64,000 bases of DNA from a virus (Duplodnaviria; Heunggongvirae; Uroviricota; Caudoviricetes): IMG/VR virus record IMGVR_UViG_2651869695_000003; one strand, 5' to 3'. The position numbers were made by a program, and so were the translations under genes. This document shows positions 22,235 through 60,485 of this stretch, one piece after another (position 1 is the stretch's first letter; each line of letters opens with the position of its first letter). The notes under the pieces were generated by a model. It did no database searches, was not told the DNA's origin, and worked only from the letters and a program-made list of their open reading frames with translations.

Positions 22235-23218
22235 ATGCATCGTATAGACACGAAAACCGCGCAGAAGGATAAGTTCGGCGCGGGTAAGAACGGTTTTACC
22301 CGTGGTAACCCCCAGACCGGCACACCTGCCACCGATCTTGATGATGACTACTTTGATATGTTGCAGGAAGAACTCTGCAGCGTGGTGGAGGCATCCGGTG
22401 CCAGCCTGGAGAAGGGGCGGCATGACCAGCTGCTTACCGCGCTTCGTGCGCTGCTGTTAAGCCGCAAGAATCCGTTTAGCGATATCAAATCGGATGGCAC
22501 GGTGAAAACGGCTCTCGAAAACCTTGGTTTGGGAGAAGCCAGATTCTCTGGTCGTTTGTTAAACACGAATATTTTTAAAAGCTCTGGAAAATATATCCCA
22601 ACACTAGGGACAAAAAAGATAAGGGTCATTGCCTCTGGTGGCGGTGGCGGCGGCGGTGGGGTTCCTGAAACAACAGAAAATCAGCAGGCAACAGCCGGAG
22701 CTGGATTGAGCGGTGCATTTATTGAAGCATTTTTCGAGGTTGATAATGATTTCGAAGTCAACGTTATTATCGGTGCTGCAGGTAAAGGGGGGGGAGCCGG
22801 AAGAAATTCAGGTAGTGAAGGTGGCACAACTTATTTCGGTTCCCTGATAACTGCACCGGGTGGTACAGGCGGTGGCGCGGGGGGAGCATCTGCAAACACA
22901 TCATATATTCAGGGTATTTCATGGGGTGCCAGTCCGACATCGTCCGGTACTGTACTAAGAGCATTTCGCTGTAGTGCAAAAACACCAGGAGCAATGGTTA
23001 TCTCTGTTAAAGCTGTTGCAGGTGGTACCGGGGGGGATACACCACTAGGTTCAGGCGGTATAGGTGGTGCAAGTTCTTCATCATTCAGCGGACGTGGTGG
23101 TGGTAAAGCTGAGGGCTTTGGTGCTGGCGGAGGCGGAGCCTGCGCACCTGCCGGAAGTGAGGCTCAATCGGGAGGTGACGGTGCCCCGGGAATAGTTATT
23201 GTTGAGGAGTATGCCTGA
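22235..23218 (+). CDS. Tail fibre protein, variant A (constant N-terminus 102 aa + Gly-rich variable C-terminus)
   Basis: First 102 aa identical to the fibre at 23869..24531; C-terminus rich in GGxGG repeats. Confidence 0.8.
22512..22537. other. Candidate Din-family invertase crossover site (left)
   Basis: CTCTCGAAAACC-TT-GGTTTGGGAGAA fits the hix/gix/cix-type pattern (TTnTCnnAAACC-NN-GGTTTnnGAnAA, from memory); lies at the constant/variable junction. Confidence 0.55.
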
Positions 23219-23481
23219 TGAGTAATTTTGCTCTGATTGAACATGGCGTGGTGAAAAATATTATTATCTGGGATGGAGAGGGTGATTTATTCTCTAACTG
23301 CGAAATTATAAATATTGATCATATAGATGCAGGCGTCGGTTGGTTCTATTCTGACGGAGAGTTTATAGCACCACCGGAACCGGAAATGACTGAATATGAT
23401 GTTGGTAATATCGACGCGGTGATGGAATCAGATACCAGCACCGCGCCGGACGTCATCTGGCCTGAACTGCCGGAGGCGTAG
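23218..23481 (+). CDS. Tail fibre assembly protein for variant A
   Basis: 87 aa; start overlaps fibre A stop (TGATG); C-terminus ...[12 protein letters not shown] resembles Tfa C-termini. Confidence 0.55.
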   Translation: MSNFALIEHGVVKNIIIWDGEGDLFSNCEIINIDHIDAGVGWFYSDGEFIAPPEPEMTEYDVGNIDAVMESDTSTAPDVIWPELPEA

Positions 23482-23872
23482 GCCATTCAATATCTGGCGC
23501 ACCGGAAGTATCGACCAGTTCCAGTGCGTCCAGGTAATCCAGCCACAAATTATATTGCGCCAGTTCCTCACCTTTCAGACGACCAATAGCGGCTTTACCA
23601 GGCCATTGCTTACTGTTCATGTATTCGTTGGCCTGTTCAATAAGTATACTTTTCATTCCCTCCGCTTCAGCTATTTCCTGTTCCTGTGTCTTCGCTGGAT
23701 ATTCAGTAAGTACAGGGTAGTTATCCGGATTATTGATAATAATTTTCCCCGTACTCTGACCATTCATAAGTTCATAATAAAGAGCATCTTCAATATCGAA
23801 AGCATCATCGGGAATATCGCTGTTATTTTCAGAGAAAAATCCCTGAACAGATGGGGACCATTTCATTTTCAT
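23453..23872 (-). CDS. Tail fibre assembly protein for variant B
   Basis: 139 aa; coupled to fibre B; C-terminus ...[15 protein letters not shown]; 3' end overlaps convergent tfa A by 29 nt. Confidence 0.7.
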
Positions 23873-24531
23873 AATTTCCCAATTCCTAAAATGTGGACAT
23901 CATCAGCCTTACGGGCATTCCAGGTGACAATTACATCGGTAGAGTGACGATTAACTGAGATTGCATATGCTTCGTTAGTCGAGCCAGAAACTTTTGTAGC
24001 AAACACAGCAAACAGGACACCAAATGACTGGGGCCATTTATAGCCTGACAGCTGATAATTACCATTATTCAGTGTTACAGCTTTGGCTGCTGCACTTGAT
24101 GGAATCGTCAGCCACTGAAGTATCAACCCTCCTGGCAAAAGTTGTTTTCCGTAATAATCCCTCACCCCACTAAATGAAGCCATGTCCGGTATCTGATTTT
24201 CCCCTGTTCCCACATTTCGTTTTGCCGCTTCTCCCAAACCAAGGTTTTCGAGAGCCGTTTTCACCGTGCCATCCGATTTGATATCGCTAAACGGATTCTT
24301 GCGGCTTAACAGCAGCGCACGAAGCGCGGTAAGCAGCTGGTCATGCCGCCCCTTCTCCAGGCTGGCACCGGATGCCTCCACCACGCTGCAGAGTTCTTCC
24401 TGCAACATATCAAAGTAGTCATCATCAAGATCGGTGGCAGGTGTGCCGGTCTGGGGGTTACCACGGGTAAAACCGTTCTTACCCGCGCCGAACTTATCCT
24501 TCTGCGCGGTTTTCGTGTCTATACGATGCAT
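23869..24531 (-). CDS. Tail fibre protein, variant B (same constant N-terminus, different C-terminal receptor-binding region)
   Basis: N-terminal 102 aa identical to variant A, then unrelated C-terminus. Confidence 0.8.
24229..24254. other. Candidate Din-family invertase crossover site (right, inverted)
   Basis: TTCTCCCAAACC-AA-GGTTTTCGAGAG, reverse complement of left site. Confidence 0.55.
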
Positions 24532-28207: not shown

Positions 28208-29532
28208 TGCACTGGCACCTTCAGAGGGATCACCGGCACAAAGCCGGGATGCGTAATGGCATTACGCCGGATAATGTCCGCGTCACGCGCCGCGTTATCA
28301 AACCAGGTCGCCGCCAGCACCAGCGCGGGTAAAACCTCATCCGGCGTGCGCTGAATGATCCGTGCAGACTGTTCAAGGCGCGTGTTGATATCCGCATTCA
28401 GATCTGCTTTCACCCGGCGCAGCGCCAGAAACAGCGCATCACTGGTTGTACGGGACAACTCCTTATCAATTGCCGTATTCAGTGTGTCGCGAATGTCAGT
28501 CAGTTCTTCCCACGTCGGCAGGTCAACTGTGTTTTTCACCGCCGGTGCATTGTTCAGTGCCGGATGCGTGACGGAAGGCCAGCCAGTGCTCTGCGCAGGT
28601 GTTGTTGCCTGCCCCACTGCGGCATTCTGCATCACCGCGGAAGTTGTTGGCGCAGGCAATCGGGTGACGGCATACGCCGCTTCGCTGATTGCGGTCGTAC
28701 GAAGGGTGCTGGCAACCACGTTACGCTGCTGCGTAGCCGTGGCGGTGGTTTTACTGTCCGTTTTCCAGACGCCGCGCGGTTGCAGATCGCTGCCGAGGCT
28801 GACACCGGAAAGCGTTTTGATCATGGTGACCAGGTCGCTGGCGTTACCATAAAGGCGTTTCCCGGTACGCCACATTTTCTGCACCTGCTCAACGAAATTT
28901 TTGCCTGACGATGGCGGCGGCAGAAGTACCGAGATATCCCCCTGCAACAGCCTGGCGGCATCCGATACGGCAGAATCCACCACTTTCATCGCATCAGAAA
29001 CATACCCAAGCATTGTGCTGGCATTACCGACGACGTCGTTCTGCACAAAATCTGCCACGCCATCGATACTGAAACTACTGAAACTGTCACTGATGCAGTC
29101 ATCCAGTGCAGAACAGGATGACATCAGCGTCTGCGCCGTCGCCGCACCTGATGTGGGGTAAGAGAGTTCTCCCGCTTCGACAAACTTCAGGTCAAAGCGG
29201 ACAATACGCCCTTCACTCTTCGATGTGCTGACCCGAACCTCTCCGTCAACACAGACTTTCAGCTCACCGTAAGTCGGATGGACAAGCGTGCCGGGACCGG
29301 GTTTATTCAGCGCGTCAATCAGGCGATCGCGCTGGTCAAAGCAGTCATCTCCCACCACATAAGCCGTGATGGACGGGCGGAAAGTGATTTTCCCCAGGTC
29401 TTCGGTATAGGGTTTGTCGCGGTTCGGGTATTCGTGCGTTTCCACACGACGACCGGTTCCCGCACTTTCTTCTTCAACCTTAAACGGCACACCGCGAAAT
29501 GACGCGTCCTGAAGTCTGTCTTTCCACGTCAT
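28204..29532 (-). CDS. DNA circularisation protein N-like (copy 2)
   Basis: Identical inverted copy of 17234..18562. Confidence 0.7.
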   Translation of the reverse strand: MTWKDRLQDASFRGVPFKVEEESAGTGRRVETHEYPNRDKPYTEDLGKITFRPSITAYVVGDDCFDQRDRLIDALNKPGPGTLVHPTYGELKVCVDGEVRVSTSKSEGRIVRFDLKFVEAGELSYPTSGAATAQTLMSSCSALDDCISDSFSSFSIDGVADFVQNDVVGNASTMLGYVSDAMKVVDSAVSDAARLLQGDISVLLPPPSSGKNFVEQVQKMWRTGKRLYGNASDLVTMIKTLSGVSLGSDLQPRGVWKTDSKTTATATQQRNVVASTLRTTAISEAAYAVTRLPAPTTSAVMQNAAVGQATTPAQSTGWPSVTHPALNNAPAVKNTVDLPTWEELTDIRDTLNTAIDKELSRTTSDALFLALRRVKADLNADINTRLEQSARIIQRTPDEVLPALVLAATWFDNAARDADIIRRNAITHPGFVPVIPLKVPVQ

Positions 29533-29592
29533 ATAAACTCCGTACATAAAAAATCCCACCGGAGTGGGACTCATTAACAGATTAATTTTTCA

Positions 29593-31428
29593 TTACCTGC
29601 CAAAGCGCGTATAGCCAACATCATGGCTGACATCAAAACCGCTGGATCGCGTTTCCATAACCCGCATACCCGGAGGCGAATTCACAAAAGAGACCTTGAT
29701 CTCACCATCAACTTTTGGCGCAGAAGCTTTGTTAATCATGAAGGGATTCAGGCCTGTGGCATCGGAGGCGTTGTTTGACTGAGCCGGATCTACCGCCGGA
29801 TAAGGTGTGTATCCCCGCGCCGGTATTCCCGTCCCATAAGCATCATAAGCACCCGCGCCCCACTGCGCAGAGTTAATGGCATCGACCGTGTCACCGGAAC
29901 TGTCGGTAAACCACTCAATAATTGGCTTCAGCTTGTCCCACATATCCTGAAACCACTTAACAACCGGTCCCCAGTTATTGATCACCATCCCCAGCGGCGA
30001 CCAGGCAAAAACCTTCTTAAGAAGTTCCCAGCCAGTCTCAAAATAAGGACCAATGGTTTCCCAGAGTTTCTTAAAATAAGGTCCGACAACATCCCAGTTA
30101 GTGATAATTAATCCCGCAGCCAGGGCTATCGCCGTCGCAATCATGCCAATCGGCGTCATCGACATGATCCTGCTGACAATACTGATGGCACCGCCAACGC
30201 CCATCAATCCCAGTTTCAGAATCGCAAGACCGGCAGCAAGCCCGACGACGCCGCGAATAACCCGGGGATTTTCATCCGCAAACTTCGTGAATTTTTCCCC
30301 TAACTCCCCCAGCCATTGCGTGATATTTTTAGCGTCACCAGAAAATGCGCCGCCAATAGCCGCAAGGCCGTTAGTTGCGGTCCCCGTCATTGCCTCCCAC
30401 AGGTTGGACAGCGTACCAAGCTGAGCCTGAACACGTTTATTCAGGCTGGCCTGTTTATTCATCTTCTGCTGGATCTGATCGTAGCCATCCTTTCCTTTAT
30501 CGATCAGCGCATTGACCACCTGAAGGGTTTCGGCATCATCACCAAATATTGCCTTAAGTACACCGGTTCGCTTAACGTCGGTCAGTTTTCGCAGCTTTGC
30601 CAGTTGCCTGAACATGTTATCAAGACCGCCAAAACTCCCTTTGCCATCAGTAAAATCGAGCTGTACCCCGAGTTTCTGGCGGGCCATGATTTTATTGACG
30701 TCCCTGATTTTCTTAACGCTTAATCCGGACTGGATAACTTTTCGCAGGGCATTACCTGCCGACTCCCCGTTCATCCCCATCTGATCCATCATGACACTGA
30801 TGGGGGCAAGACTCTGTGCAGCCTGAAGACCGTCCTTATTCACCATTTTCAGAACAGAACTGGTTTTAGTGAAGAAGGACAACATGTTGGTATCATCAAC
30901 GCCCAGATAAAACGCCTTCTGGATAGTGTCGAACAGCCCCATCATGTCTTCTGACGCCGTTCCGGTAGCATCCTGCATCTTTGCAGCAAACTCAGCAGCC
31001 GCTTCCGGTGTTTTTTTCAGTTGTACCGCAAGATAAGCTGTCGCTTTACCCACACCACCAAGAATGTTTTCTGCCGGGATCCCCTGACGCACCAGCATCT
31101 GCATCATGTTCTGGAAATCAGCCGTTGTACCGGGTAGCTGGTTACCCAGGCCAATAGCCAGTTTATTGATGTCCTGAAAGCTCTTTCCAACCTCGCCGTT
31201 CGCATCCATCATGGCGACTTTCAGCCCGGTGGCGGCGTTTTCCTGATCGGCATAAGATTTCAGGGAAAGCGTCAGACCCGCTGCCAGTCCGCCACCAAGC
31301 GCCAGCCCACCCTGTGACGCTTCTTCCGCCTGGCGTTTAAATCCCCGGATTTTCTTTTGCATTTTCGACAGCGCGGGAGAAAGCCTGTCGACACCGGTGA
31401 TCAACGCCTTAAGCTCAAATTCAGCCAT
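29593..31428 (-). CDS. Tail tape measure protein (copy 2)
   Basis: Identical inverted copy of 15338..17173. Confidence 0.85.
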   Translation of the reverse strand: MAEFELKALITGVDRLSPALSKMQKKIRGFKRQAEEASQGGLALGGGLAAGLTLSLKSYADQENAATGLKVAMMDANGEVGKSFQDINKLAIGLGNQLPGTTADFQNMMQMLVRQGIPAENILGGVGKATAYLAVQLKKTPEAAAEFAAKMQDATGTASEDMMGLFDTIQKAFYLGVDDTNMLSFFTKTSSVLKMVNKDGLQAAQSLAPISVMMDQMGMNGESAGNALRKVIQSGLSVKKIRDVNKIMARQKLGVQLDFTDGKGSFGGLDNMFRQLAKLRKLTDVKRTGVLKAIFGDDAETLQVVNALIDKGKDGYDQIQQKMNKQASLNKRVQAQLGTLSNLWEAMTGTATNGLAAIGGAFSGDAKNITQWLGELGEKFTKFADENPRVIRGVVGLAAGLAILKLGLMGVGGAISIVSRIMSMTPIGMIATAIALAAGLIITNWDVVGPYFKKLWETIGPYFETGWELLKKVFAWSPLGMVINNWGPVVKWFQDMWDKLKPIIEWFTDSSGDTVDAINSAQWGAGAYDAYGTGIPARGYTPYPAVDPAQSNNASDATGLNPFMINKASAPKVDGEIKVSFVNSPPGMRVMETRSSGFDVSHDVGYTRFGR

Positions 31429-44343: not shown

Positions 44344-45285
44344 ATGAGTACAGAAAATAAGAATAAAACCAGGCGAGTGAGAGTTGGTTTTTTCACTGGT
44401 AATGGAAGCAAAAAATATGGCACATCTGCTGCAAAACTAGCCTTTGAGCAAATGACCACAGCAGATACTGTAACTTTTCCAATAACTTACACAACAGACA
44501 CCCCAAGTCGAGGGTTAAAGTTAGTTATTCTTCAAAAAGATACCACACTGCAATGTTACTTTGGTTACGTATCGTGGAGAAGGGAATGCCTACTACCGTT
44601 CATCGAGGATGCTACAGGTAGTGAGAGAACAATTCCTTTAAATGATAAAGATTCTGTAGTTGAAAGAACATATTTTATCTATTACTACGAAACGGACTTA
44701 TTAGCTATGACCCTCAACCATATAGGGCCCAAAGTAAATGATCTGGCATTCATTTTGTATAACAAAACTGATTTAAAAAGCGTCACTTTTGAAGCCATTT
44801 GGAAACAAGAGAGCATGAAGGAACTGCTTGAGGACGGAAATATCCTACGTAGTTTCGATCTTATAGTTGCTGCTCCAAGAAACTTTAACAAAGCTAATTA
44901 TAAGATTAAAAACCCTTTAGCTAATGAAATTATTGACATGGTTGTTGGTATGGGCGGGTCGCATCTAAGATTAAATATGCGAGGTCGGATTCGCCCGAAA
45001 AAACAAGGGTTTAACTATCTAAAAACTTCTGTCACCGATGCTATTAAGGAACTACTTGAACTTTTTCCAAAAGGTTCTGGAGGTCTAAAAATTAAAAAAA
45101 TTGATGTAACAGAGCCATCCAATAGAACGCCCAAAAGTCTACTTGACCAAGTATTGGTCAGTACAAAGACAATCATTGTCAAAAGCGGTTATCCATCCGA
45201 TTCTGATATCAGAACGGCGATGATATCTGCTAAAATTGATAACGCGAACTATCTTGCACAGTATGAGCTCGCTAGCAGAGACTAA
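44344..45285 (+). CDS. Hypothetical 313-aa cassette protein (copy 2)
   Basis: Identical inverted copy of 1481..2422; here in context of the complete prophage. Confidence 0.55.
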   Translation: MSTENKNKTRRVRVGFFTGNGSKKYGTSAAKLAFEQMTTADTVTFPITYTTDTPSRGLKLVILQKDTTLQCYFGYVSWRRECLLPFIEDATGSERTIPLNDKDSVVERTYFIYYYETDLLAMTLNHIGPKVNDLAFILYNKTDLKSVTFEAIWKQESMKELLEDGNILRSFDLIVAAPRNFNKANYKIKNPLANEIIDMVVGMGGSHLRLNMRGRIRPKKQGFNYLKTSVTDAIKELLELFPKGSGGLKIKKIDVTEPSNRTPKSLLDQVLVSTKTIIVKSGYPSDSDIRTAMISAKIDNANYLAQYELASRD

Positions 45286-45294
45286 TAACCAAGC

Positions 45295-45756
45295 ATGGAG
45301 GACACAATGAGAGAATTAGCCACTTTTCTCTGGAAATGCGTCCTCTGGATTCTGTTGACCTATGCAGCGACAAAACTGTTTAAACCGATGAAGCATGCTG
45401 ACGTACTCACAACAGCGGGGGTGCTCTCGACTATATCAGGCATCCTGTTTGGTTTTGTTCTGGCTGCAATATCTATATTTAGTAGTGCAAACAGCGATAA
45501 GGAAGGAGCAATTAATGCCCTTAAGCAAAACAACGTGTTACCAACTCTGGTAAATAGATTACTTTCAACAGGGTTAACTCTCATCGTCGCATGTATATTT
45601 CCATTGATAGCGATGTTTCTACCTGATGATGTTATTGTTGCGGGCAAACCTATTGATTTCCTGTTCATACTGTTAGGCTTATCCTCCCTTATAATTTCGC
45701 TATATACCTTCGGAAGGTGTTGGTTAGTGTTACGAAAAATCTTCCCCCACTTGTGA
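45295..45756 (+). CDS. Four-TM membrane protein (cassette gene 2, copy 2)
   Basis: Identical inverted copy of 1010..1471. Confidence 0.55.
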   Translation: MEDTMRELATFLWKCVLWILLTYAATKLFKPMKHADVLTTAGVLSTISGILFGFVLAAISIFSSANSDKEGAINALKQNNVLPTLVNRLLSTGLTLIVACIFPLIAMFLPDDVIVAGKPIDFLFILLGLSSLIISLYTFGRCWLVLRKIFPHL

Positions 45757-45791
45757 CAGGTTGGCCTCATATGGGGCCAACCTGTGCAACC

Positions 45792-46160
45792 CTAAGCGTC
45801 CATTTCAAGGTTAAAATCCAACATTGAAAGGCAACCATCAATAAATCCTTCGGCTAGTTGTATTTCTATGCGTACCAATTTTTCATCCTTTCCACGCACC
45901 TTTGCAATCTTACGCTTGGATATTCTGTATAAATAATGTGCCACAAGCAGCGAGTGCTCATCTGGCTTTTTTTGCTTTAGACGAGCAAGACAACCTTCAA
46001 TAATTAATGCATCACTATCTGAACAAGCCTGACGTGTTTTGCTTGTGTAGGGAAGAAGCCCCTTAAACCCAGCAGCTATAGGCGAATAGTCTACTCCAGA
46101 ACTATCACTCGCCGCCCATGCTCCCCAACGCTCCAGAACCATCTGAATATCACGCATCAA
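45792..46160 (-). CDS. Antitermination protein Q (copy 2)
   Basis: Identical inverted copy of 606..974. Confidence 0.7.
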   Translation of the reverse strand: MMRDIQMVLERWGAWAASDSSGVDYSPIAAGFKGLLPYTSKTRQACSDSDALIIEGCLARLKQKKPDEHSLLVAHYLYRISKRKIAKVRGKDEKLVRIEIQLAEGFIDGCLSMLDFNLEMDA

Positions 46161-46174
46161 CTTTCTCCACCAAA

Positions 46175-47170
46175 TCAGGCCAACACCCCAATCGCCAGCG
46201 CGCGATCGATAAAACGAAATATCAGCTCCAGTTGGGAGCCATACTTCTCTTCAAATGCCACGGTATCCGCATGCAGCTCGTCGTGATGCTTTCTGCACAA
46301 AGGCAACACAAAGAGGTCATGCGCTTTTGTACCCATTCCACCCTGACCGTGACCTATCAGGTGGTGGGGATCATCAGCAGGCTTTCCACAACATGCACAC
46401 GGCTGTGTCTTAACCCAGCGCGTGTACTTTTCATTAACCCAGCGGCGGCGTTTTGGGCGTAACATAAAAGACTCCAGCGACTCCGGATCCACTTTCAGCG
46501 CCAGCACCTTTTTCGCTTTATCCTGGATAATGCTGGTGGCAGGAACCGAAGGCACAAGGTCACTTTCCCGGGTGACCGCCTGCACAACAGGCTTCGGTAA
46601 TCTCAGTGCCTTACGGGCTGCACTTTCCGGTAAGGCATCCGCCAGGTCATTACGAATCAGCCACCAGCACAGTTCCGGTATTGTCACAACGTGACTATCA
46701 TCAAAACCGAGATCCCGACGCACAACAGACAACACCCAGCGGGCACAGTTATCCGTTGCCATTGATTCCAGCCGTTCCGTGAACTGATCGCGCAGCTGGT
46801 TATCGCAGTGCCAGCACAAACGGATTGCGCCCGGAGCGTGTCGCATTGTTGTCATGTTCTCGCTGTGCCAGTCGGAATGAGGCCACTGGCAGCCTTTTTC
46901 ACGAAGTAACCAGCTTTCAAGACATTCCACGCCACCAGCACGACGGATCACTGCCTCATTGCGGAATACGGCCCGAACGGCAGGATCATCCGCCAGCGGT
47001 TGTGATGCCGCCGGAACGGCACCACTGGCGAAAGATGAATAACGTTCCGGCTCAGGCTCCAGCAGGACACGCCCCTGCATAAACAGGGGCATCAACTCTG
47101 AACCTGGCCTGAACAATACGATCCCCATACGCGGGGCAATTTCAGGGGTCAGTAGTGCTCTCACGGTCAC
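46175..47170 (-). CDS. DUF968/YdfU-like prophage protein, full length (331 aa)
   Basis: C-terminal 196 aa duplicated at 1..591; Cys/His-rich C-terminus. Confidence 0.5.
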   Translation of the reverse strand: MTVRALLTPEIAPRMGIVLFRPGSELMPLFMQGRVLLEPEPERYSSFASGAVPAASQPLADDPAVRAVFRNEAVIRRAGGVECLESWLLREKGCQWPHSDWHSENMTTMRHAPGAIRLCWHCDNQLRDQFTERLESMATDNCARWVLSVVRRDLGFDDSHVVTIPELCWWLIRNDLADALPESAARKALRLPKPVVQAVTRESDLVPSVPATSIIQDKAKKVLALKVDPESLESFMLRPKRRRWVNEKYTRWVKTQPCACCGKPADDPHHLIGHGQGGMGTKAHDLFVLPLCRKHHDELHADTVAFEEKYGSQLELIFRFIDRALAIGVLA

Positions 47171-47171
47171 C

Positions 47172-47969
47172 TCAATGAACGGTATCGAGCAGCTTTAACA
47201 GCTCAGAGAATCGGGATTCGAAGAAATGCGGCTGCGTCTCGCGCGGATTTGCGGGACTGGTGATGTTCTTGCCGAACATGCAGCCTTTCGCTGTCAGCGA
47301 CCAGAATTTTTTGATGTTGTTAATCGCGGTACGGCTGTATCGTTCGCGCTGCTCGACGATCCCCAGCTTCACCATCTGGTGATATGCCTGATTAGCCGTC
47401 AGGCGGATACCATACTGTTTCAGCAGTGCACTCAGTGACAGCGTAGGGCGACTTGAGCCATCGTGTGCATCAGCAGGAGCATCAATGGCATAGCGCGGTG
47501 CCAGATTCGGTAAGCCAACAGCCTCCTGAAGTTTCTGACAGGCTCCAAGCACTGAAGAGTTAGACAGATTTAACTCCCGGCGCATAAAGTCCAGCAGAAT
47601 CACGCCAGCCTGCATCTTGTCAGCAGCCTGTCCGGATAATTTTTCAGGTGCGCTGGTTACCATGTCGAAAGTACGGATCACCTTCAGATGGAATGACGGG
47701 CTGATCCACATTGCATAGGCATACACCAGTTCTTTGCAGACATACGTCCCCTGGTTATTTCCGCCACGAATAACGTTAACTGGCGCTATATTGACCGAGT
47801 TGCAAATCTGCAACTCGCTTATTAAACGTTCGGTTTGCTCATTGCGGAGCCAGAATGCAGGCTTATGTTTATCCAGAGAACCGGCAGCCCTGTGCAAATC
47901 GTTCAGGCTGTAACGCCCATAAGCATCACGACGAACTTCAATACCATCAATAACCATCAGATTATTCAT
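47172..47969 (-). CDS. KilA-N domain protein (antirepressor-like)
   Basis: N-terminal region (MNNLMVIDGIEVRRDAYGRYSLNDLHRAAG...) resembles KilA-N/Bro-N domains; nin-region position. Confidence 0.6.
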   Translation of the reverse strand: MNNLMVIDGIEVRRDAYGRYSLNDLHRAAGSLDKHKPAFWLRNEQTERLISELQICNSVNIAPVNVIRGGNNQGTYVCKELVYAYAMWISPSFHLKVIRTFDMVTSAPEKLSGQAADKMQAGVILLDFMRRELNLSNSSVLGACQKLQEAVGLPNLAPRYAIDAPADAHDGSSRPTLSLSALLKQYGIRLTANQAYHQMVKLGIVEQRERYSRTAINNIKKFWSLTAKGCMFGKNITSPANPRETQPHFFESRFSELLKLLDTVH

Positions 47970-47988: not shown

Positions 47989-48378
47989 TCAGGCGGCTGC
48001 ACCCGCCGGTTTCTCGTACTTACTGATAGTGATCTCGACCTTCCCTTCCGGGATAACCGGTCCCCACTCCACCAGCATTCTTTTCACCTGACTGTCGTCT
48101 TCCCACACACCCGCGTGGGTCAGGGCGTCAAACAGCGCCTTGTTATAGTTGTCCAGATCGCGGATCCGGTTATCCGGAGGAAACAACACGATCTCCACTG
48201 AAGCAGGTGCCGACGTTGGTTTTGGCAGACGACGTAACTGCTCAAATATTGCTGCACACGCCGCGCTCTGGAATTTGCGCCCCGCCGCGCTTATCAGGCT
48301 CTTACCAGCAAACGCCCCTTTGTTGGGGTGTCGCCAGTACGTGTTCACGCTGGGCGGAAAAGGCAGGATCAGCTTCAT
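47989..48378 (-). CDS. rusA: Holliday junction resolvase RusA
   Basis: PFPPSVNTYWR ... RDLDNYNKALFDALTHAGVWEDDSQV matches conserved RusA motifs. Confidence 0.8.
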   Translation of the reverse strand: MKLILPFPPSVNTYWRHPNKGAFAGKSLISAAGRKFQSAACAAIFEQLRRLPKPTSAPASVEIVLFPPDNRIRDLDNYNKALFDALTHAGVWEDDSQVKRMLVEWGPVIPEGKVEITISKYEKPAGAAA

Positions 48379-48701
48379 ACTTTCAGGCCCCTCTCATGTA
48401 ACCAGTGGGCTGCACGCAGCCTGGCGTTTTCCTCACCGGCAAGCAGTGAGCGGATAATCCCGACCGCCTCGCTGTCGTCGTCCTTCACCGCGGTATGAAG
48501 CGTTATCCCCCGTGCCACGCCACGCTTTATCGTGATGACGCCTTTTTTCTCCAGTGCGCGAAGATGCTCCACCGCTGCATTCACTGAACGGTATCCCAGC
48601 ATGGTAGCCACCTCCTGATTGGTTGGTGGGAAGCCACGTTCTTTCTGGTAAGAAATCAGCATATCCAGCACCTGCTGCTGGCATTGAGTTAACGTCGTCA
48701 T
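48375..48701 (-). CDS. LexA-like N-terminal DNA-binding domain protein (no peptidase domain)
   Basis: LTQCQQQVLDMLISYQKERGFPPTNQEVATMLGYRSVNAAVEHLRALEKKGVI resembles LexA winged-helix domain; start taken at internal Met coupled to upstream stop (TAATG). Confidence 0.55.
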   Translation of the reverse strand: MTTLTQCQQQVLDMLISYQKERGFPPTNQEVATMLGYRSVNAAVEHLRALEKKGVITIKRGVARGITLHTAVKDDDSEAVGIIRSLLAGEENARLRAAHWLHERGLKV

Positions 48702-49195
48702 TAAGCCCCCACGTAATTCCCTGACAGATACCACTCTTCACCTGATGCAGCCCGCTTACTGCTTTTCCGTAAACACCGTTCACGACGCGCCAGAAAATTG
48801 TTTCGTTCTGGCTGGGAGTGGCTTTCACGGAATGCCGCCATCCACACCGTTGCAGCACGACGGTATAAGCCCCTGGACTCCAGTTCTTCCGCCTGGCGGG
48901 TCAGGCACAAAATCACCCGCGGGTCGTTAGTGCCGACATAGAAATTGCGCACAGGTCTGGTTTCACGAACTGGTTGTGGTTCCGGATCCTGCGCTCTCTC
49001 AGTCAGGCGCGGGAAATGTCTGTGTGTATCTCCTTCACAACGGTGAGCCACACGCCCACTCTGACGTAACTTGCTTGCTGACTGCAGAACGCGCTGCCGT
49101 GAGTAACCTGCAAAAGCATCCGCAATGTCTCCGGAAGTACAGCCCGGATGGGCTTCAATGAATTTCTGAACGTCATTCAAAAGACTCATGCTCAC
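48701..49195 (-). CDS. Hypothetical early-region protein (164 aa)
   Basis: ORF translationally coupled to flanking genes; function not recognised. Confidence 0.4.
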   Translation of the reverse strand: MSMSLLNDVQKFIEAHPGCTSGDIADAFAGYSRQRVLQSASKLRQSGRVAHRCEGDTHRHFPRLTERAQDPEPQPVRETRPVRNFYVGTNDPRVILCLTRQAEELESRGLYRRAATVWMAAFRESHSQPERNNFLARRERCLRKSSKRAASGEEWYLSGNYVGA

Positions 49196-50133
49196 CCCCT
49201 GAATCCTGCCGGGATCTGGCTGTAGTCCACATTGTCGTAACTGGCTTTGAAGTACGGGTCTTCGCGTTTTTCTGTGTACGTGCTGACGGACGGCGATAAG
49301 CGCAGGGAAAGCTCATCCCATTTTTCCCGCAGCTTCGACGGGCTGAGCACGTTACGGCACCAGAACGGATCGCGGCTGACGCGGCTGTACATCTCGCAGA
49401 TTTGTTTGTGAGTACGACCATCCTGCACACACATCAGGCGAATTTCGTTTGCCCAGGCTGTCCAGTTCGGTTCTTTGGGACGAACCACCTCGCCGTCACA
49501 TTCGGCAGCCTGCTCGTACAGGGCGATGATTTTTTTCCAGAGCCACTGTGCGCAGGTCAAATCATCCTGCGTCCCCCACTGGCGCTTTTTAGGGCTGAAT
49601 ACAACCGCATCAGGATGGCGAGTTAAAAAATCCTGTTCAGCCGTCTGCGTGTCCGGTTGCGAAGCGTCCGGACGAGAAGGTTTTTTATCTGACGGATCAT
49701 GTTTTGATTTTACTGACGGATCCCCGCCAGATTCTGACGGGTGAAAACCCGCTTTTTTGCCAGATTTCGACGCATCAAATTTTGACGGGTCAGATTTTGA
49801 TGCGTCAGATTTTGACGGGTCAGAATCTGACAGTTGAGAAAATGCCGCTGCCTGAAGCTTCGCAACGTTAAGCTGATAAACATTCGACGCATTGCGGTTA
49901 CCCTGGCGACGCGCCTTACGCGTTAACCAGCCTTCTGCTTCCAGCCGTGCGATAGCCGTTCTGACGGTACTCATCCCCGCGCCAATCTGACGGGCAATGG
50001 TTTCAATTGATGGCCAGCACACACCTTCGTCATTACTGAAATCAGCCAGGCGGGCCATAATTGCCACGCTGGATAACTTCATGCCTGATGCAGCGCAACC
50101 ATCCCATACATAGCCGGTTAATTTAGTGCTCAT
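49192..50133 (-). CDS. Replication initiation protein (O-like; HTH N-terminus, internal pentapeptide repeats)
   Basis: N-terminal winged-helix-like region; internal tandem 15-bp DNA repeats; position downstream of cro/cII-like genes. Confidence 0.55.
   Translation of the reverse strand: MSTKLTGYVWDGCAASGMKLSSVAIMARLADFSNDEGVCWPSIETIARQIGAGMSTVRTAIARLEAEGWLTRKARRQGNRNASNVYQLNVAKLQAAAFSQLSDSDPSKSDASKSDPSKFDASKSGKKAGFHPSESGGDPSVKSKHDPSDKKPSRPDASQPDTQTAEQDFLTRHPDAVVFSPKKRQWGTQDDLTCAQWLWKKIIALYEQAAECDGEVVRPKEPNWTAWANEIRLMCVQDGRTHKQICEMYSRVSRDPFWCRNVLSPSKLREKWDELSLRLSPSVSTYTEKREDPYFKASYDNVDYSQIPAGFRG
49728..49835. repeat. Iteron-like tandem 15-bp direct repeats inside replication gene (candidate ori)
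   Basis: CAGATTTTGAYGSGT units at 49728, 49761, 49776, 49791, 49806, 49821 read directly. Confidence 0.5.
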
Positions 50134-51078: not shown

Positions 51079-51279
51079 CTAATCTTTCGGATAGATATCC
51101 GGTCTTAAGTCAGATTTCGTAATTGCACCTGACGTGCATTGCTCAAGTTTTTTAGCCAGCACAAAACTGGCTTTTTTATAGCCATTGAAAACCAGCCGTA
51201 AGTAGCCAGGTGTTGAGCCAACTTTTCCGGCCAACTCGCCCTGCTGTTCTTTGGTTAAAGAGTCCCAATACGCTTTCAT
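51079..51279 (-). CDS. Cro/YdaS-like HTH regulator
   Basis: 66-aa HTH protein divergent from cI-like repressor; start at first ATG of the longer ORF 51079..51582. Confidence 0.6.
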   Translation of the reverse strand: MKAYWDSLTKEQQGELAGKVGSTPGYLRLVFNGYKKASFVLAKKLEQCTSGAITKSDLRPDIYPKD

Positions 51280-51282
51280 ACA

Positions 51283-51354
51283 ATATGTACCTCCGATGTA
51301 CATATTACATGATTGAAATGAACCTTCAAGATACTTGTACCTTAACGGTACAAG
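51283..51354. promoter_or_regulatory. Operator region (OR-like): two TGTAC-N7-GTACA inverted repeats between cro and cI
   Basis: ATATGTAC-N7-GTACATAT at 51283..51305 and CTTGTACC-N5-GGTACAAG at 51334..51354. Confidence 0.45.
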
Positions 51355-51369
51355 GGTTTTAATTTCGTT

Positions 51370-52044
51370 ATGAAAACAATCCATGACATCCGGCGGTCTA
51401 ACGCCAGAAAACTGAGAGATGGTGTTGGCGGGAATTCTTCCTTTGCCACTATGATTGATCGCGAGCCAACCCAGACCAGCAGGTTTATGGGAGATGGTGC
51501 TACTAAAAATATCGGTGACAGCATGGCACGACACATCGAAAAATGTTTCGACCTGCCTGTCGGATGGCTCGATCAAGAACACCAGACAACGAACATCACA
51601 AAAAAACCTGATGTTTCAATCACTAATAAACAAATCACATTAGTCCCTGTCATATCATGGGTACAGGCCGGAGCATGGAAAGAAGTTGGATATTCTGAGG
51701 TTGATTTGAGCACAGCAGAAACGTATCCCTGCCCTGTACCCTGTGGGGAAATGACTTATATCTTGCGGGTGATAGGTGATTCAATGATTGATGAGTACCG
51801 CCCGGGAGACATGATTTTTGTCGATCCTGAAGTACCTGCCTGCCACGGTGACGACGTTATTGCATTGATGCACGATACAGGTGAAACCACCTTCAAAAGG
51901 TTGATAGAAGATGGGACACAGCGTTATCTCAAAGCGTTAAACCCAAACTGGCCTGAGCCTTACATTAAGATCAACGGTAATTGCTCTATAATTGGTACAG
52001 TGATTTTCTCAGGAAAACCAAGAAGATACAAAATCAAAGCCTAA
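51370..52044 (+). CDS. CI-like repressor (HTH + S24 LexA-type peptidase domain)
   Basis: C-terminal ...VIGDSMIDEYRPGDMIFVDP... autocleavage domain motif; divergent from cro; no SD (possibly leaderless like lambda PRM transcript). Confidence 0.8.
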   Translation: MKTIHDIRRSNARKLRDGVGGNSSFATMIDREPTQTSRFMGDGATKNIGDSMARHIEKCFDLPVGWLDQEHQTTNITKKPDVSITNKQITLVPVISWVQAGAWKEVGYSEVDLSTAETYPCPVPCGEMTYILRVIGDSMIDEYRPGDMIFVDPEVPACHGDDVIALMHDTGETTFKRLIEDGTQRYLKALNPNWPEPYIKINGNCSIIGTVIFSGKPRRYKIKA

Positions 52045-52079: not shown

Positions 52080-52083
52080 ATAC

Positions 52084-52115
52084 TTGACAATGTACCTTTG
52101 AGATACATAATGTAC
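52084..52115 (+). promoter_or_regulatory. PL-like promoter with overlapping operator half-sites
   Basis: TTGACA (52084..52089), 16-bp spacer, CATAAT (52106..52111); TGTAC/ATACA half-sites overlap. Confidence 0.45.
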
Positions 52116-52216
52116 CCAAGCGAAACAACGAACAGGCAGGACGCCCACGAAGTAGCCGCCTGGGGCATATGAAGTCCAGGATGATTCGTTGAGTCATGTT
52201 GTGCCACTAGGCACTC

Positions 52217-56034: not shown

Positions 56035-56241
56035 ATGCTGAACCTCGATTGTGTTCCTATCTCAACTTATTGCAAAGAAACTGGCGAAACTCCTGAAGCA
56101 ATAAACAAACGTGTACAGCGCGGTGTTTGGCGTGAAGGTGTTCAGGTTTTAAAGGTTGAAGGCGTTAAGGAGAGGTGGATTGATCTTAGTGAGGTTGCAA
56201 AATGGGCCAGACAAAACTGCTCAAACTACCGCGCGGCGTAA
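56035..56241 (+). CDS. Excisionase-like DNA-binding protein
   Basis: Small basic protein immediately upstream of and overlapping integrase. Confidence 0.55.
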   Translation: MLNLDCVPISTYCKETGETPEAINKRVQRGVWREGVQVLKVEGVKERWIDLSEVAKWARQNCSNYRAA

Positions 56242-57377
56242 CAATCAGGAAACACCGCCAGGGAGAAACGATCAATATAACTTTCACCTACAAAGGAGTT
56301 AGATGTCGTGAGCCACTTTCCAATCTGGAAGTAACACCAAAGAACATTAAATACGCCGAGCGTACACTCGGCGAAATCCATAATAAGATCGAAAGGGGAA
56401 CATTCATTTATGCAGAATATTTTCCCCGTTCTGCTCGTTTGAAAATTTTTGGTAATGCTGCCACTGGCAAAACGGTAAAAATGTACCTGGACGAATATCT
56501 TGAAATCTGCGAAACGAGGAAACTATCACCATCCACGATTGGTGGTTATAAAAAATGCCGGAGTGCGTTAGCCTCGCTTCACATTTGCCCTGCAAGTGAA
56601 TTAACACCAGCAACCCTGAAAGCGTGGATTCAAAGCCAAAAAACGACCTTAAAAACCATTCGCAACCAGTTATCTTTCCTGCGGTCAGCACTTGATGAAG
56701 CCGTAACCGATGGGGTACTTCAAATTAATCCCGTATCGTTAGTAACTGCTTCGCGCTACCAAAGTGATAAGTCAGAAGCAGAAAGCAGCTACGTGGTTGA
56801 TCCGCTATCACCAGCAGAAGTTGATGCATTACTAGCAGCAGCCGGAAACAAACAATGGGAGAATCTGTTCCGGTTCGCTATACATACAGGTCTGCGTAGT
56901 TCTGAATTATGTGCCCTTCGATGGCGTGATATTGACTTTGTAGGGATGACTGCCCACGTCCAGAGCGCCAGTGTTGTTGGTGTAATCAAAGGTACCAAAA
57001 CAAAAGCAGGTACTCGAAAAGTTGAACTGACAGATGAAGCAATGTCTGCACTAATAAATCAGAAACCGTTCACTTTCATGAAGGACGCGACTGTCTTTGA
57101 AGATCCAAAAACCAATAAACCTTGGGCCAGCGCAGACGCCATAAGAAAGAAGGCATGGGTGCCAACTTTACGTAAAGCCGGAGTCCGTTACCGTAATCCT
57201 TATCAAACTAGACATACATTTGCTACAAAACACATTAGTCAAGGTGTTAATTTGTTTTGGTTAGCCGCTCAAATGGGGCATAAAGGACCAGAAATGCTAT
57301 TTAGGCATTACGGCCGTTATCTTAAAGATTATGATAACAATAGCACACACAATCATTTGATAAATTGTACTAATTAA
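56202..57377 (+). CDS. Tyrosine integrase (phage integrase family)
   Basis: C-terminal catalytic region with R...HxxR...Y pattern (TRHTFATKHI ... LFRHYGRY). Confidence 0.9.
   Translation: MGQTKLLKLPRGVTIRKHRQGETINITFTYKGVRCREPLSNLEVTPKNIKYAERTLGEIHNKIERGTFIYAEYFPRSARLKIFGNAATGKTVKMYLDEYLEICETRKLSPSTIGGYKKCRSALASLHICPASELTPATLKAWIQSQKTTLKTIRNQLSFLRSALDEAVTDGVLQINPVSLVTASRYQSDKSEAESSYVVDPLSPAEVDALLAAAGNKQWENLFRFAIHTGLRSSELCALRWRDIDFVGMTAHVQSASVVGVIKGTKTKAGTRKVELTDEAMSALINQKPFTFMKDATVFEDPKTNKPWASADAIRKKAWVPTLRKAGVRYRNPYQTRHTFATKHISQGVNLFWLAAQMGHKGPEMLFRHYGRYLKDYDNNSTHNHLINCTN

Positions 57378-58540: not shown

Positions 58541-60485
<1,945 letters not shown>

Follow-up and report, generated by a model that had tools for sequence, protein, structure and literature searches.

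The 64,000-nucleotide DNA stretch analyzed here (hereafter the window; IMG/VR virus record IMGVR_UViG_2651869695_000003, Caudoviricetes) carries on its minus strand a gene for a 108-residue protein related to LexA's DNA-binding domain. A first-pass annotation, made from the sequence alone, had proposed a protein of ~108 residues at this place and interpreted it as a LexA DNA-binding domain without the autopeptidase. The open reading frame (ORF) is confirmed to be intact, with its ATG at 48701 and its stop codon at 48375-48377, and near-identical prophages in RefSeq have an identical gene call of 327 nucleotides, named "LexA family transcriptional regulator". The full length of the protein is matched by phrog_362 (E-value 1.4e-59, residues 1-108 against profile positions 1-106 of 106), which is annotated in PHROG as "transcriptional repressor". 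The protein falls, at 95-100% identity, within the family of SfV orf42, PHROG 362 and RefSeq entries such as WP_000210164.1. Judged by its sequence, it is a genuine LexA DNA-binding-domain homologue that has already been catalogued, in a family of uncharacterised function. The existing names of the SfV orf42/PHROG 362 family derive from homology alone, and literature searches on the enterobacterial PHROG 362 family found no functional study. It should be mentioned that truncated phage LexA homologues are already known as a kind, the characterised member being gp6 of GIL01. Two features apparently have not been described before, as literature searches found no prior description of them: the conserved C-terminal hairpin of the protein, and the near-invariant place of its gene upstream of rusA. 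In PADLOC, the protein has no defence-system match beyond weak winged-helix similarity.

The LexA-type domain and the C-terminal hairpin

The N-terminal part of the protein is matched end to end by the Pfam profile PF01726 (LexA_DNA_bind), residues 1-65 aligning with profile positions 1-65 of 65 (E-value 2.9e-19) at a score of 69 bits against a cut-off of 23.7. The motif quoted in the first-pass annotation for its likeness to LexA, PPTxxEVAxxLGxRSxNAAxEHLxALxxKGVI, is present, and the profile search did not assign the protein to an unrelated winged-helix family, the outcome that the annotation had named as its refutation. A phmmer search against the PDB aligned residues 2-69, without gaps, with the DNA-binding domain of E. 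coli LexA (1lea and 3jso, E-value ~1e-15). An AlphaFold2 model was built from a 101-sequence alignment, with a mean predicted local distance difference test score (pLDDT) of 84. It shows a winged helix-turn-helix with helices at residues 6-22, 28-35 and 40-52 and strands at residues 56-58 and 66-68, and the block pLDDT over this domain is 76-89. When the N-terminal domain of the model was placed by Foldseek on the LexA-DNA complex 3jso, the root-mean-square deviation (rmsd) was 0.8 Å over 67 columns, with 51% identity.

The DNA-contact residues of LexA are S39, N41, A42, E44 and E45 (PMC3091678). In the alignment, the phage protein retains four of these five, S39, N41, A42 and E45, with a valine at position 44. 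Its wing retains G61, R64 and G65 and has two additional basic residues, K59 and R60. The contacts and the wing fit recognition of a CTGT-type half-site, and binding of the SOS box by proteins of this E. coli/Shigella clade is plausible. Among ten divergent lineages, S39 is invariant, and six have both N41 and E45, along with a small amino acid (A or G) at position 42. The recognition residues are altered in the other four, all from Enterobacteriaceae (N41 to Y; A42 to T; E45 to G, L or I), where the corresponding segments read NTIAGHL (P0088), NAVLLHL (P0172), NTVFIHL (P0207) and YAAYEHL (P0220). A change of E45 to D is also seen among lineages of the family. The Enterobacteriaceae that host the family presumably share the E. 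coli SOS box. Since the recognition residues vary within a family hosted by Enterobacteriaceae, the family as a whole is not tied to the SOS box.

The resemblance to LexA ends with this domain. No match to the S24 peptidase domain (PF00717) was found by Pfam in the protein. The NCBIfam lexA equivalog TIGR00498 aligns over model positions 1-91 of 203 only, at 70.8 bits and below its cut-off of 110.95, and the chain ends at residue 108, short of the positions of LexA Ser119 and Lys156. The autopeptidase is therefore missing, as had been proposed, and self-cleavage is impossible. The description of the protein as a DNA-binding domain only is correct with regard to the missing protease half; it overlooks a conserved helical hairpin at residues 78-103. 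Following an acidic linker of low model confidence, the two hairpin helices, residues 78-88 and 93-103, are predicted with pLDDT of ~90. In the protein and 16 relatives, the most distant of them at 39% identity, this segment follows the consensus EAVxxIRALLAxEENARxRAxxWLxxRG, in which A97 and L101 do not vary down to ~40% identity. A search of PDB sequences with the C-terminal tail alone returned chance matches only (E-value >1).

Repressors of the BlaI/MecI type have a similar architecture, in which the winged helix at the N-terminus leads into a small C-terminal module made up of helices only. The Foldseek matches to two of them, 2g9w and 1okr, extend over ~100 columns with E-values of 0.014-0.06, an rmsd of ~7 Å and 13-25% identity. 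There is no Pfam match for membership in the BlaI/MecI family, and the resemblance is an architectural analogy, not homology. Because of its position in place of the S24 domain, and by analogy with winged-helix repressors that have a small helical C-terminal module, the hairpin may be regarded as a candidate dimerisation or partner-binding module.

Linkage to rusA, operon context and distribution

The strongest comparative signal is the linkage of the gene to rusA, which encodes a Holliday-junction resolvase. In E. coli, the linkage was counted on an evenly spaced sample of the genome matches. All 59 full-length matches (59 of 59) overlap a RusA gene on one side and have Dam or PerC on the other. 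The homologue overlaps rusA likewise in mEp460 and in the HK97-like mEp390, and it adjoins rusA in SfV. In seven of seven divergent homologues examined (39-51% identity), rusA is next or follows after one ORF, and DUF968 and Q come thereafter. Their upstream neighbour varies, being a replication gene, Dam, a Dcm-like methylase or PerC. Two distinct RusA clades are represented among the rusA-linked loci. The start codon of rusA overlaps the stop codon of the LexA-type gene (ATGA) in the window, and the same overlap is seen in five of the seven distant loci. The LexA-like gene (42-50% identity) diverges faster than the linked rusA (69-76%) in four of the seven, and faster than DUF968 (53-68%) in all five comparable loci. 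It is noted that the linkage is not absolute. RusA genes of the HK97/82 type (38-41% identity) have no LexA-like neighbour, the RusA gene of Yersinia phage YeP2 (61% identity) stands directly after dam, and in Klebsiella phage ST846-OXA48phi9.1 the homologue is present with no annotated RusA gene adjoining.

Look-alikes of SOS-pathway proteins are encoded just upstream of two of the distant homologues (L031:4310-4597 and L035:1-234). One is a stand-alone protein of 95 residues that matches only the C-terminal domain of RecA (PF21096, E-value 9e-10), and the other is a DinI homologue (PF06183, E-value 1.3e-25).

The window carries an SfV-like prophage, and its layout matches that of SfV from orf36 to Q, with the LexA-type gene in the place of orf42 (Table 1). 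The order on the minus strand is a cro-like gene, a CII-like gene, DUF4222, an O-like replication gene (49192-50133), the PerC-like gene, the LexA-type gene, rusA, KilA-N, DUF968/HNH and Q. Its place between the O-like replication gene and the antiterminator Q agrees with the nin-region placement given by the first-pass annotation. KilA-N, DUF968/HNH and Q follow in identical order in SfV, mEp460 and mEp390.

Table 1. Coordinates of the LexA-type gene, its parts and neighbouring genes in the window
Feature	Position	Strand	Basis
108-residue LexA-type winged-helix gene	48375..48701	-	complete ORF; PF01726, phrog_362, RefSeq annotation
LexA-type winged helix-turn-helix, residues 1-68	48498..48701	-	AlphaFold2 model, Foldseek, phmmer
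Recognition helix VNAAVEHLRALEK, residues 40-52	48546..48584	-	alignment; contact residues per PMC3091678
Acidic low-confidence linker HTAVKDDDS, residues 69-77	48471..48497	-	pLDDT <50 at residues 71-75
Family-specific two-helix hairpin, residues 78-103	48393..48470	-	AlphaFold2; family alignment
PerC-like regulator, upstream gene	48701..49195	-	PF06069, E-value 8.1e-9
rusA, Holliday-junction resolvase, downstream gene	47989..48378	-	PF05866, E-value 9e-15
KilA-N protein	47172..47969	-	Pfam
DUF968/HNH protein	46175..47170	-	Pfam
Antiterminator Q	45792..46160	-	Pfam
CI-type repressor with S24 peptidase domain	51370..52044	+	PF00717, E-value 1.5e-26
cro-like gene, divergent from CI	51079..51285		

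The genes of the operon are tightly packed, nearly without intergenic space. Upstream, the TAA stop codon of the PerC-like gene overlaps the ATG of the LexA-type gene (TAATG), which has a GGGGG ribosome-binding motif ahead of it. The PerC-like protein is itself a putative regulator, the second one here, and its gene is translationally coupled to the LexA-type gene. The C-terminal part of this 164-residue protein matches PerC and, weakly, the ANR family, and its N-terminal part matches MarR-like PHROG families. Many relatives have a dam cassette in place of the PerC-like gene. In SfV-type phages, dam is an insertion/deletion cassette located exactly at the shared GGGGGCTTAATG junction (48675-48835 of the minus strand, against 29480-29640 of SfV). 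Where dam is absent, as here, the LexA-type gene takes over the ribosome-binding site and the ATG that dam uses in SfV. A search directly upstream of the gene on the coding strand found no promoter-like site, and the weak promoter that is annotated for dam in SfV is no stronger, and perhaps even weaker, in this prophage. An internal promoter for expression in lysogens was considered and rejected, as no such upstream site was found. Most likely, the LexA-type gene belongs to the delayed-early genes of the rightward (pR-type) operon and would be turned on after induction or infection.

The candidate SOS-responsive immunity repressor of this prophage is the product of the CI gene, not the LexA-type protein, as suggested by the S24 domain of the former. 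Palindromes centred on GTAC (e.g. TTGTACC-N5-GGTACAA) are present at 51286-51369, between CI and the cro-like gene, and again beyond CI, at 52080-52120. These are probably CI/Cro operators, unrelated to LexA boxes.

The gene is found in 2233 of 5426 complete E. coli genomes (41%), at 95-99% nucleotide identity. A tblastn search of 50,697 phage records gave 61 records with the gene, including SfV, SfII, SfIV, mEp460, the cdtI phage and phages of both Stx2a and Stx2c. Neither Bacillus phages nor named tectiviruses are among these 61 records, and the tectivirus proteins with LexA DNA-binding domains are weak fold matches only. An exhaustive representative search yielded 4563 matches at E-value <=0.001, mostly LexA or other proteins with LexA DNA-binding domains. 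The full architecture including the hairpin was seen in about nine divergent clusters, and those with a named source all come from Enterobacteriaceae (Cronobacter, Kosakonia, Enterobacter, Cedecea, Klebsiella, Salmonella and Citrobacter). Other phages commonly encode stand-alone LexA DNA-binding domains as well. In the representative library, many proteins of ~140-350 residues contain two LexA DNA-binding domains in tandem (P0132, P0133, P0148, P0152, P0153, P0156, P0160 and others) and may be single-chain equivalents of the LexA dimer.

Possible DNA targets and the role of the protein

The first-pass annotation had suggested a scan for CTGT-N8-ACAG boxes. One exact copy is present in the window (59964); it lies within a transposase gene and is at chance level, with 0.79 copies expected. 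A position-specific scoring matrix of 20 nucleotides was derived from 20 SOS boxes of E. coli. The best score in the window is 9.5, against at least 13.3 for each of the training sites and a mean maximum of 12.6 for shuffled sequences. CTGT/ACAG half-site pairs with spacings of 0-24, in either arrangement, occur in the prophage at chance level, and no intergenic pair is close to a promoter. Behind Q and ahead of the lysis genes, a terminator-like stem-loop is all that was seen, with no candidate palindrome near Q or the late region. Regulation in cis through SOS boxes was rejected because no box above chance is present in the window, and neither autoregulation nor control of phage promoters through LexA boxes is indicated. 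CTGT-type targets, if there are any, would thus be in the host or in other elements.

We have compared the protein with three known LexA-type proteins. With E. coli LexA it shares the N-terminal winged helix-turn-helix, including the contact and wing residues given above. It differs in having the helical hairpin instead of the S24 peptidase/dimerisation domain and a valine instead of E44, and in being phage-borne, within an early operon and without an SOS box of its own. The second, gp6 of the Bacillus thuringiensis tectivirus GIL01, is a truncated LexA homologue and activates the late promoter P3 (PMC6182141). It is 44% identical to the host LexA in the DNA-binding domain, yet it binds GaCACAnnTGTGaC and not the LexA box. 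The gp6 site is a palindrome overlapping the -35 element, and gp6 has a changed recognition residue, K38 (PMC6182141). Both gp6 and the present protein are phage-encoded, stand-alone LexA DNA-binding domains without a protease, ~45-50% identical to the respective domain of the host LexA. However, gp6 is no close relative by sequence; it is essentially the domain alone and belongs to a Gram-positive tectivirus, whereas the present protein has a C-terminal hairpin and LexA-like recognition residues and is encoded next to rusA in a lambdoid nin region. The third is the N-terminal fragment of LexA itself (residues 1-84), also a LexA DNA-binding domain minus the C-terminal domain. Some SOS-box binding and repression have been reported for this fragment, and its removal by ClpXP is needed (PMC10584840). 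This residual activity makes the repressor role suggested by the first-pass annotation mechanistically reasonable. In the host fragment, the ClpXP signal is exposed by cleavage. The phage protein, in contrast, ends in ...ERGLKV and has a folded hairpin in addition, and it should therefore not share this degron. Phage manipulation of the LexA regulon to suppress a co-resident prophage has been described for GIL01 gp7 (PMC9700832).

We tentatively favour the interpretation that the protein is an uncleavable repressor of SOS-box type that acts in trans, although we rate its probability at somewhat less than one half. It would be a RecA*-insensitive, LexA-derived regulator whose winged helix-turn-helix is joined by a flexible linker to a small helical hairpin, the latter probably providing dimerisation in place of the S24 domain of LexA. 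With translational coupling to both flanking genes, the protein would be produced only after induction or infection, and induction of a prophage whose CI has an S24 domain would be expected to coincide with cleavage of the host LexA. Since the LexA contacts are kept in the E. coli/Shigella clade, the likeliest DNA targets would be CTGT-type, SOS-box-like sites. Bound by the repressor in the host chromosome or in co-resident elements, these would keep SOS-controlled genes down during phage replication, presumably to the benefit of the phage. Candidate targets are repair and mutagenesis genes, ruvAB, colicin and lysis modules, and the LexA-controlled antirepressors of rival prophages. RusA, being co-translated, would give the phage junction resolution independent of the host. 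The DinI and RecA C-terminal-domain look-alikes upstream of two distant homologues also count in favour of an SOS mimic.

If the protein does bind SOS boxes, many E. coli, Shigella and other Enterobacteriaceae carry a gene able to override the SOS response after induction. Stress-induced mutagenesis, colicin release and prophage competition could be affected, and possibly also Shiga-toxin output, because phages of Stx2a and Stx2c carry the gene. In a bolder version, which we consider rather unlikely, a stable, uncleavable LexA mimic co-translated with RusA and present in ~40% of E. coli strains would re-silence the SOS regulon after induction. Such a mimic would curb mutagenic repair, LexA-controlled lysis and colicin modules and the antirepressors of rival prophages, while the resolvase of the phage replaced the SOS-controlled RuvAB; it would amount to a widespread, phage-imposed off-switch of the SOS response.

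Several points weigh against SOS-box repression. With changed recognition residues in four of the ten divergent lineages, SOS-box binding cannot, from these alignments, be the function of the whole family, and Glu is never found at position 44 in the PHROG 362-type family. By analogy, gp6 at its 44% identity indicates that such a domain can recognise another site and act as an activator. A putative dimer mediated by the hairpin need not fit the fixed half-site spacing of the SOS box, and the linkage to rusA could instead come from a recombination-related role or from simple co-inheritance of a module. The functional interpretation of the first-pass annotation is thus partly supported: the homology and the loss of the protease hold, and SOS-box control in cis is not indicated.

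The variable recognition helix leads to the first alternative, which is possible but on balance unlikely: a transcription factor specific to the phage, either activating or repressing, that has drifted off the SOS box like gp6 and reads an operator of its own, located in the phage or in the host. It would tune expression of nin-region, late or moron genes. Besides the precedent of gp6, which activates a late promoter from a site of its own, this alternative is consistent with the variation of the recognition helix even though all hosts are Enterobacteriaceae, with the faster divergence of the gene compared with rusA and DUF968, as expected of a regulator shifting its specificity, and with other regulators nearby (PerC-like, KilA-N). 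However, the LexA contact residues are kept in this clade, and no candidate operator emerged from the search for CTGT/ACAG pairs described above. The operon offers nearly no intergenic space, and late control is already exerted by the Q antiterminator. If sites of its own are bound, the protein would be the second phage-rewired LexA domain after GIL01 gp6, from a Gram-negative background and far more widespread. A smaller probability is given to a role as DNA-binding accessory of RusA, or of phage recombination or replication, rather than primarily as a transcription factor. Translational coupling would then set a fixed ratio to RusA, and the protein would target, load or restrain the nuclease. 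The pairing with rusA described above argues for such a role, in that it holds in all sampled E. coli records, in mEp460, mEp390 and SfV and, with at most one ORF between, in the seven distant homologues; it involves two RusA clades and comes with a variable upstream neighbour and frequent ATGA overlaps. The pairing is broken, however, by the RusA genes of HK97/82 type and of YeP2, which lack a LexA-like neighbour, and by the ST846-OXA48phi9.1 homologue without annotated RusA beside it. The gene order may be mere inheritance of a rusA-DUF968-Q module, and we know of no RusA partner protein. The steady pairing nevertheless provides a concrete hypothesis on the organisation of the nin region.

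Two further explanations concern the C-terminal part. In the HMMER alignment, the segment LLAGE (residues 86-90) falls opposite the LexA cleavage site VAAGE, so that A88-G89 is paired with A84-G85. The protein could accordingly be a conditionally removable repressor, cut at A88-G89 in trans by an S24 protease (LexA, CI or UmuD) on RecA* and hence still SOS-responsive. Kim and Little are said to have observed, in 1993, intermolecular cleavage by the catalytic domains of LexA and CI. We regard this as very improbable here. The Ala-Gly pair is not conserved in divergent members (VERESDA, TRKENA, IDDQPGA), and the region is predicted as a helix end and a turn, not as the strand-loop of a cleavage region; A88-G89 is thus probably not a cleavage site. 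Hardly credible is a functionless, decaying remnant of a full-length LexA- or CI-type gene, as might be read from the likeness to the lexA model over positions 1-91 and the end of the chain soon thereafter. The length and the C-terminal motif are conserved down to ~40% identity over several genera, 2223 genomes carry the ORF in intact form (95-99% nucleotide identity), and the gene is translationally coupled to its flanking genes.

Other features of the window

Directly after the stop codon of Q, at 45756-45791, is a perfect 11-bp GC-rich stem-loop (ACAGGTTGGCC...GGCCAACCTGT). Between Q and the lysis genes are two ORFs on the opposite strand (44344-45285 and 45295-45756), which could be a moron insert. 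The former has no match in Pfam or PADLOC, and the latter has none in PADLOC, the sole library checked for it. A phage integrase (Arm-DNA-bind_2 and Phage_integrase) is encoded at 56202-57377, probably marking the end of the prophage, and beyond it, at 59342-60406, is an insertion sequence (IS)-type transposase with rve and helix-turn-helix (HTH) domains, whose gene holds the single CTGT-N8-ACAG copy of the window.

The left part of the window is occupied by a perfect inverted repeat of 22,539 nucleotides (100% complementary), with arms at 1-22539 and 24227-46765, which reaches the left edge. The prophage region that it mirrors starts with the 3' part of DUF968, followed by Q, and runs on through the tail-fibre genes. 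The spacer of 1687 nucleotides (22540-24226), with its tfa-like ORFs and two alternative C-termini of the fibre, resembles an invertible tail-fibre segment. In complete E. coli genomes, the spacer is matched together with one of its junctions, either the left or the right, and no genome has both. The repeat is more likely to stem from a misassembly that folded back through the invertible segment than from a true duplication.

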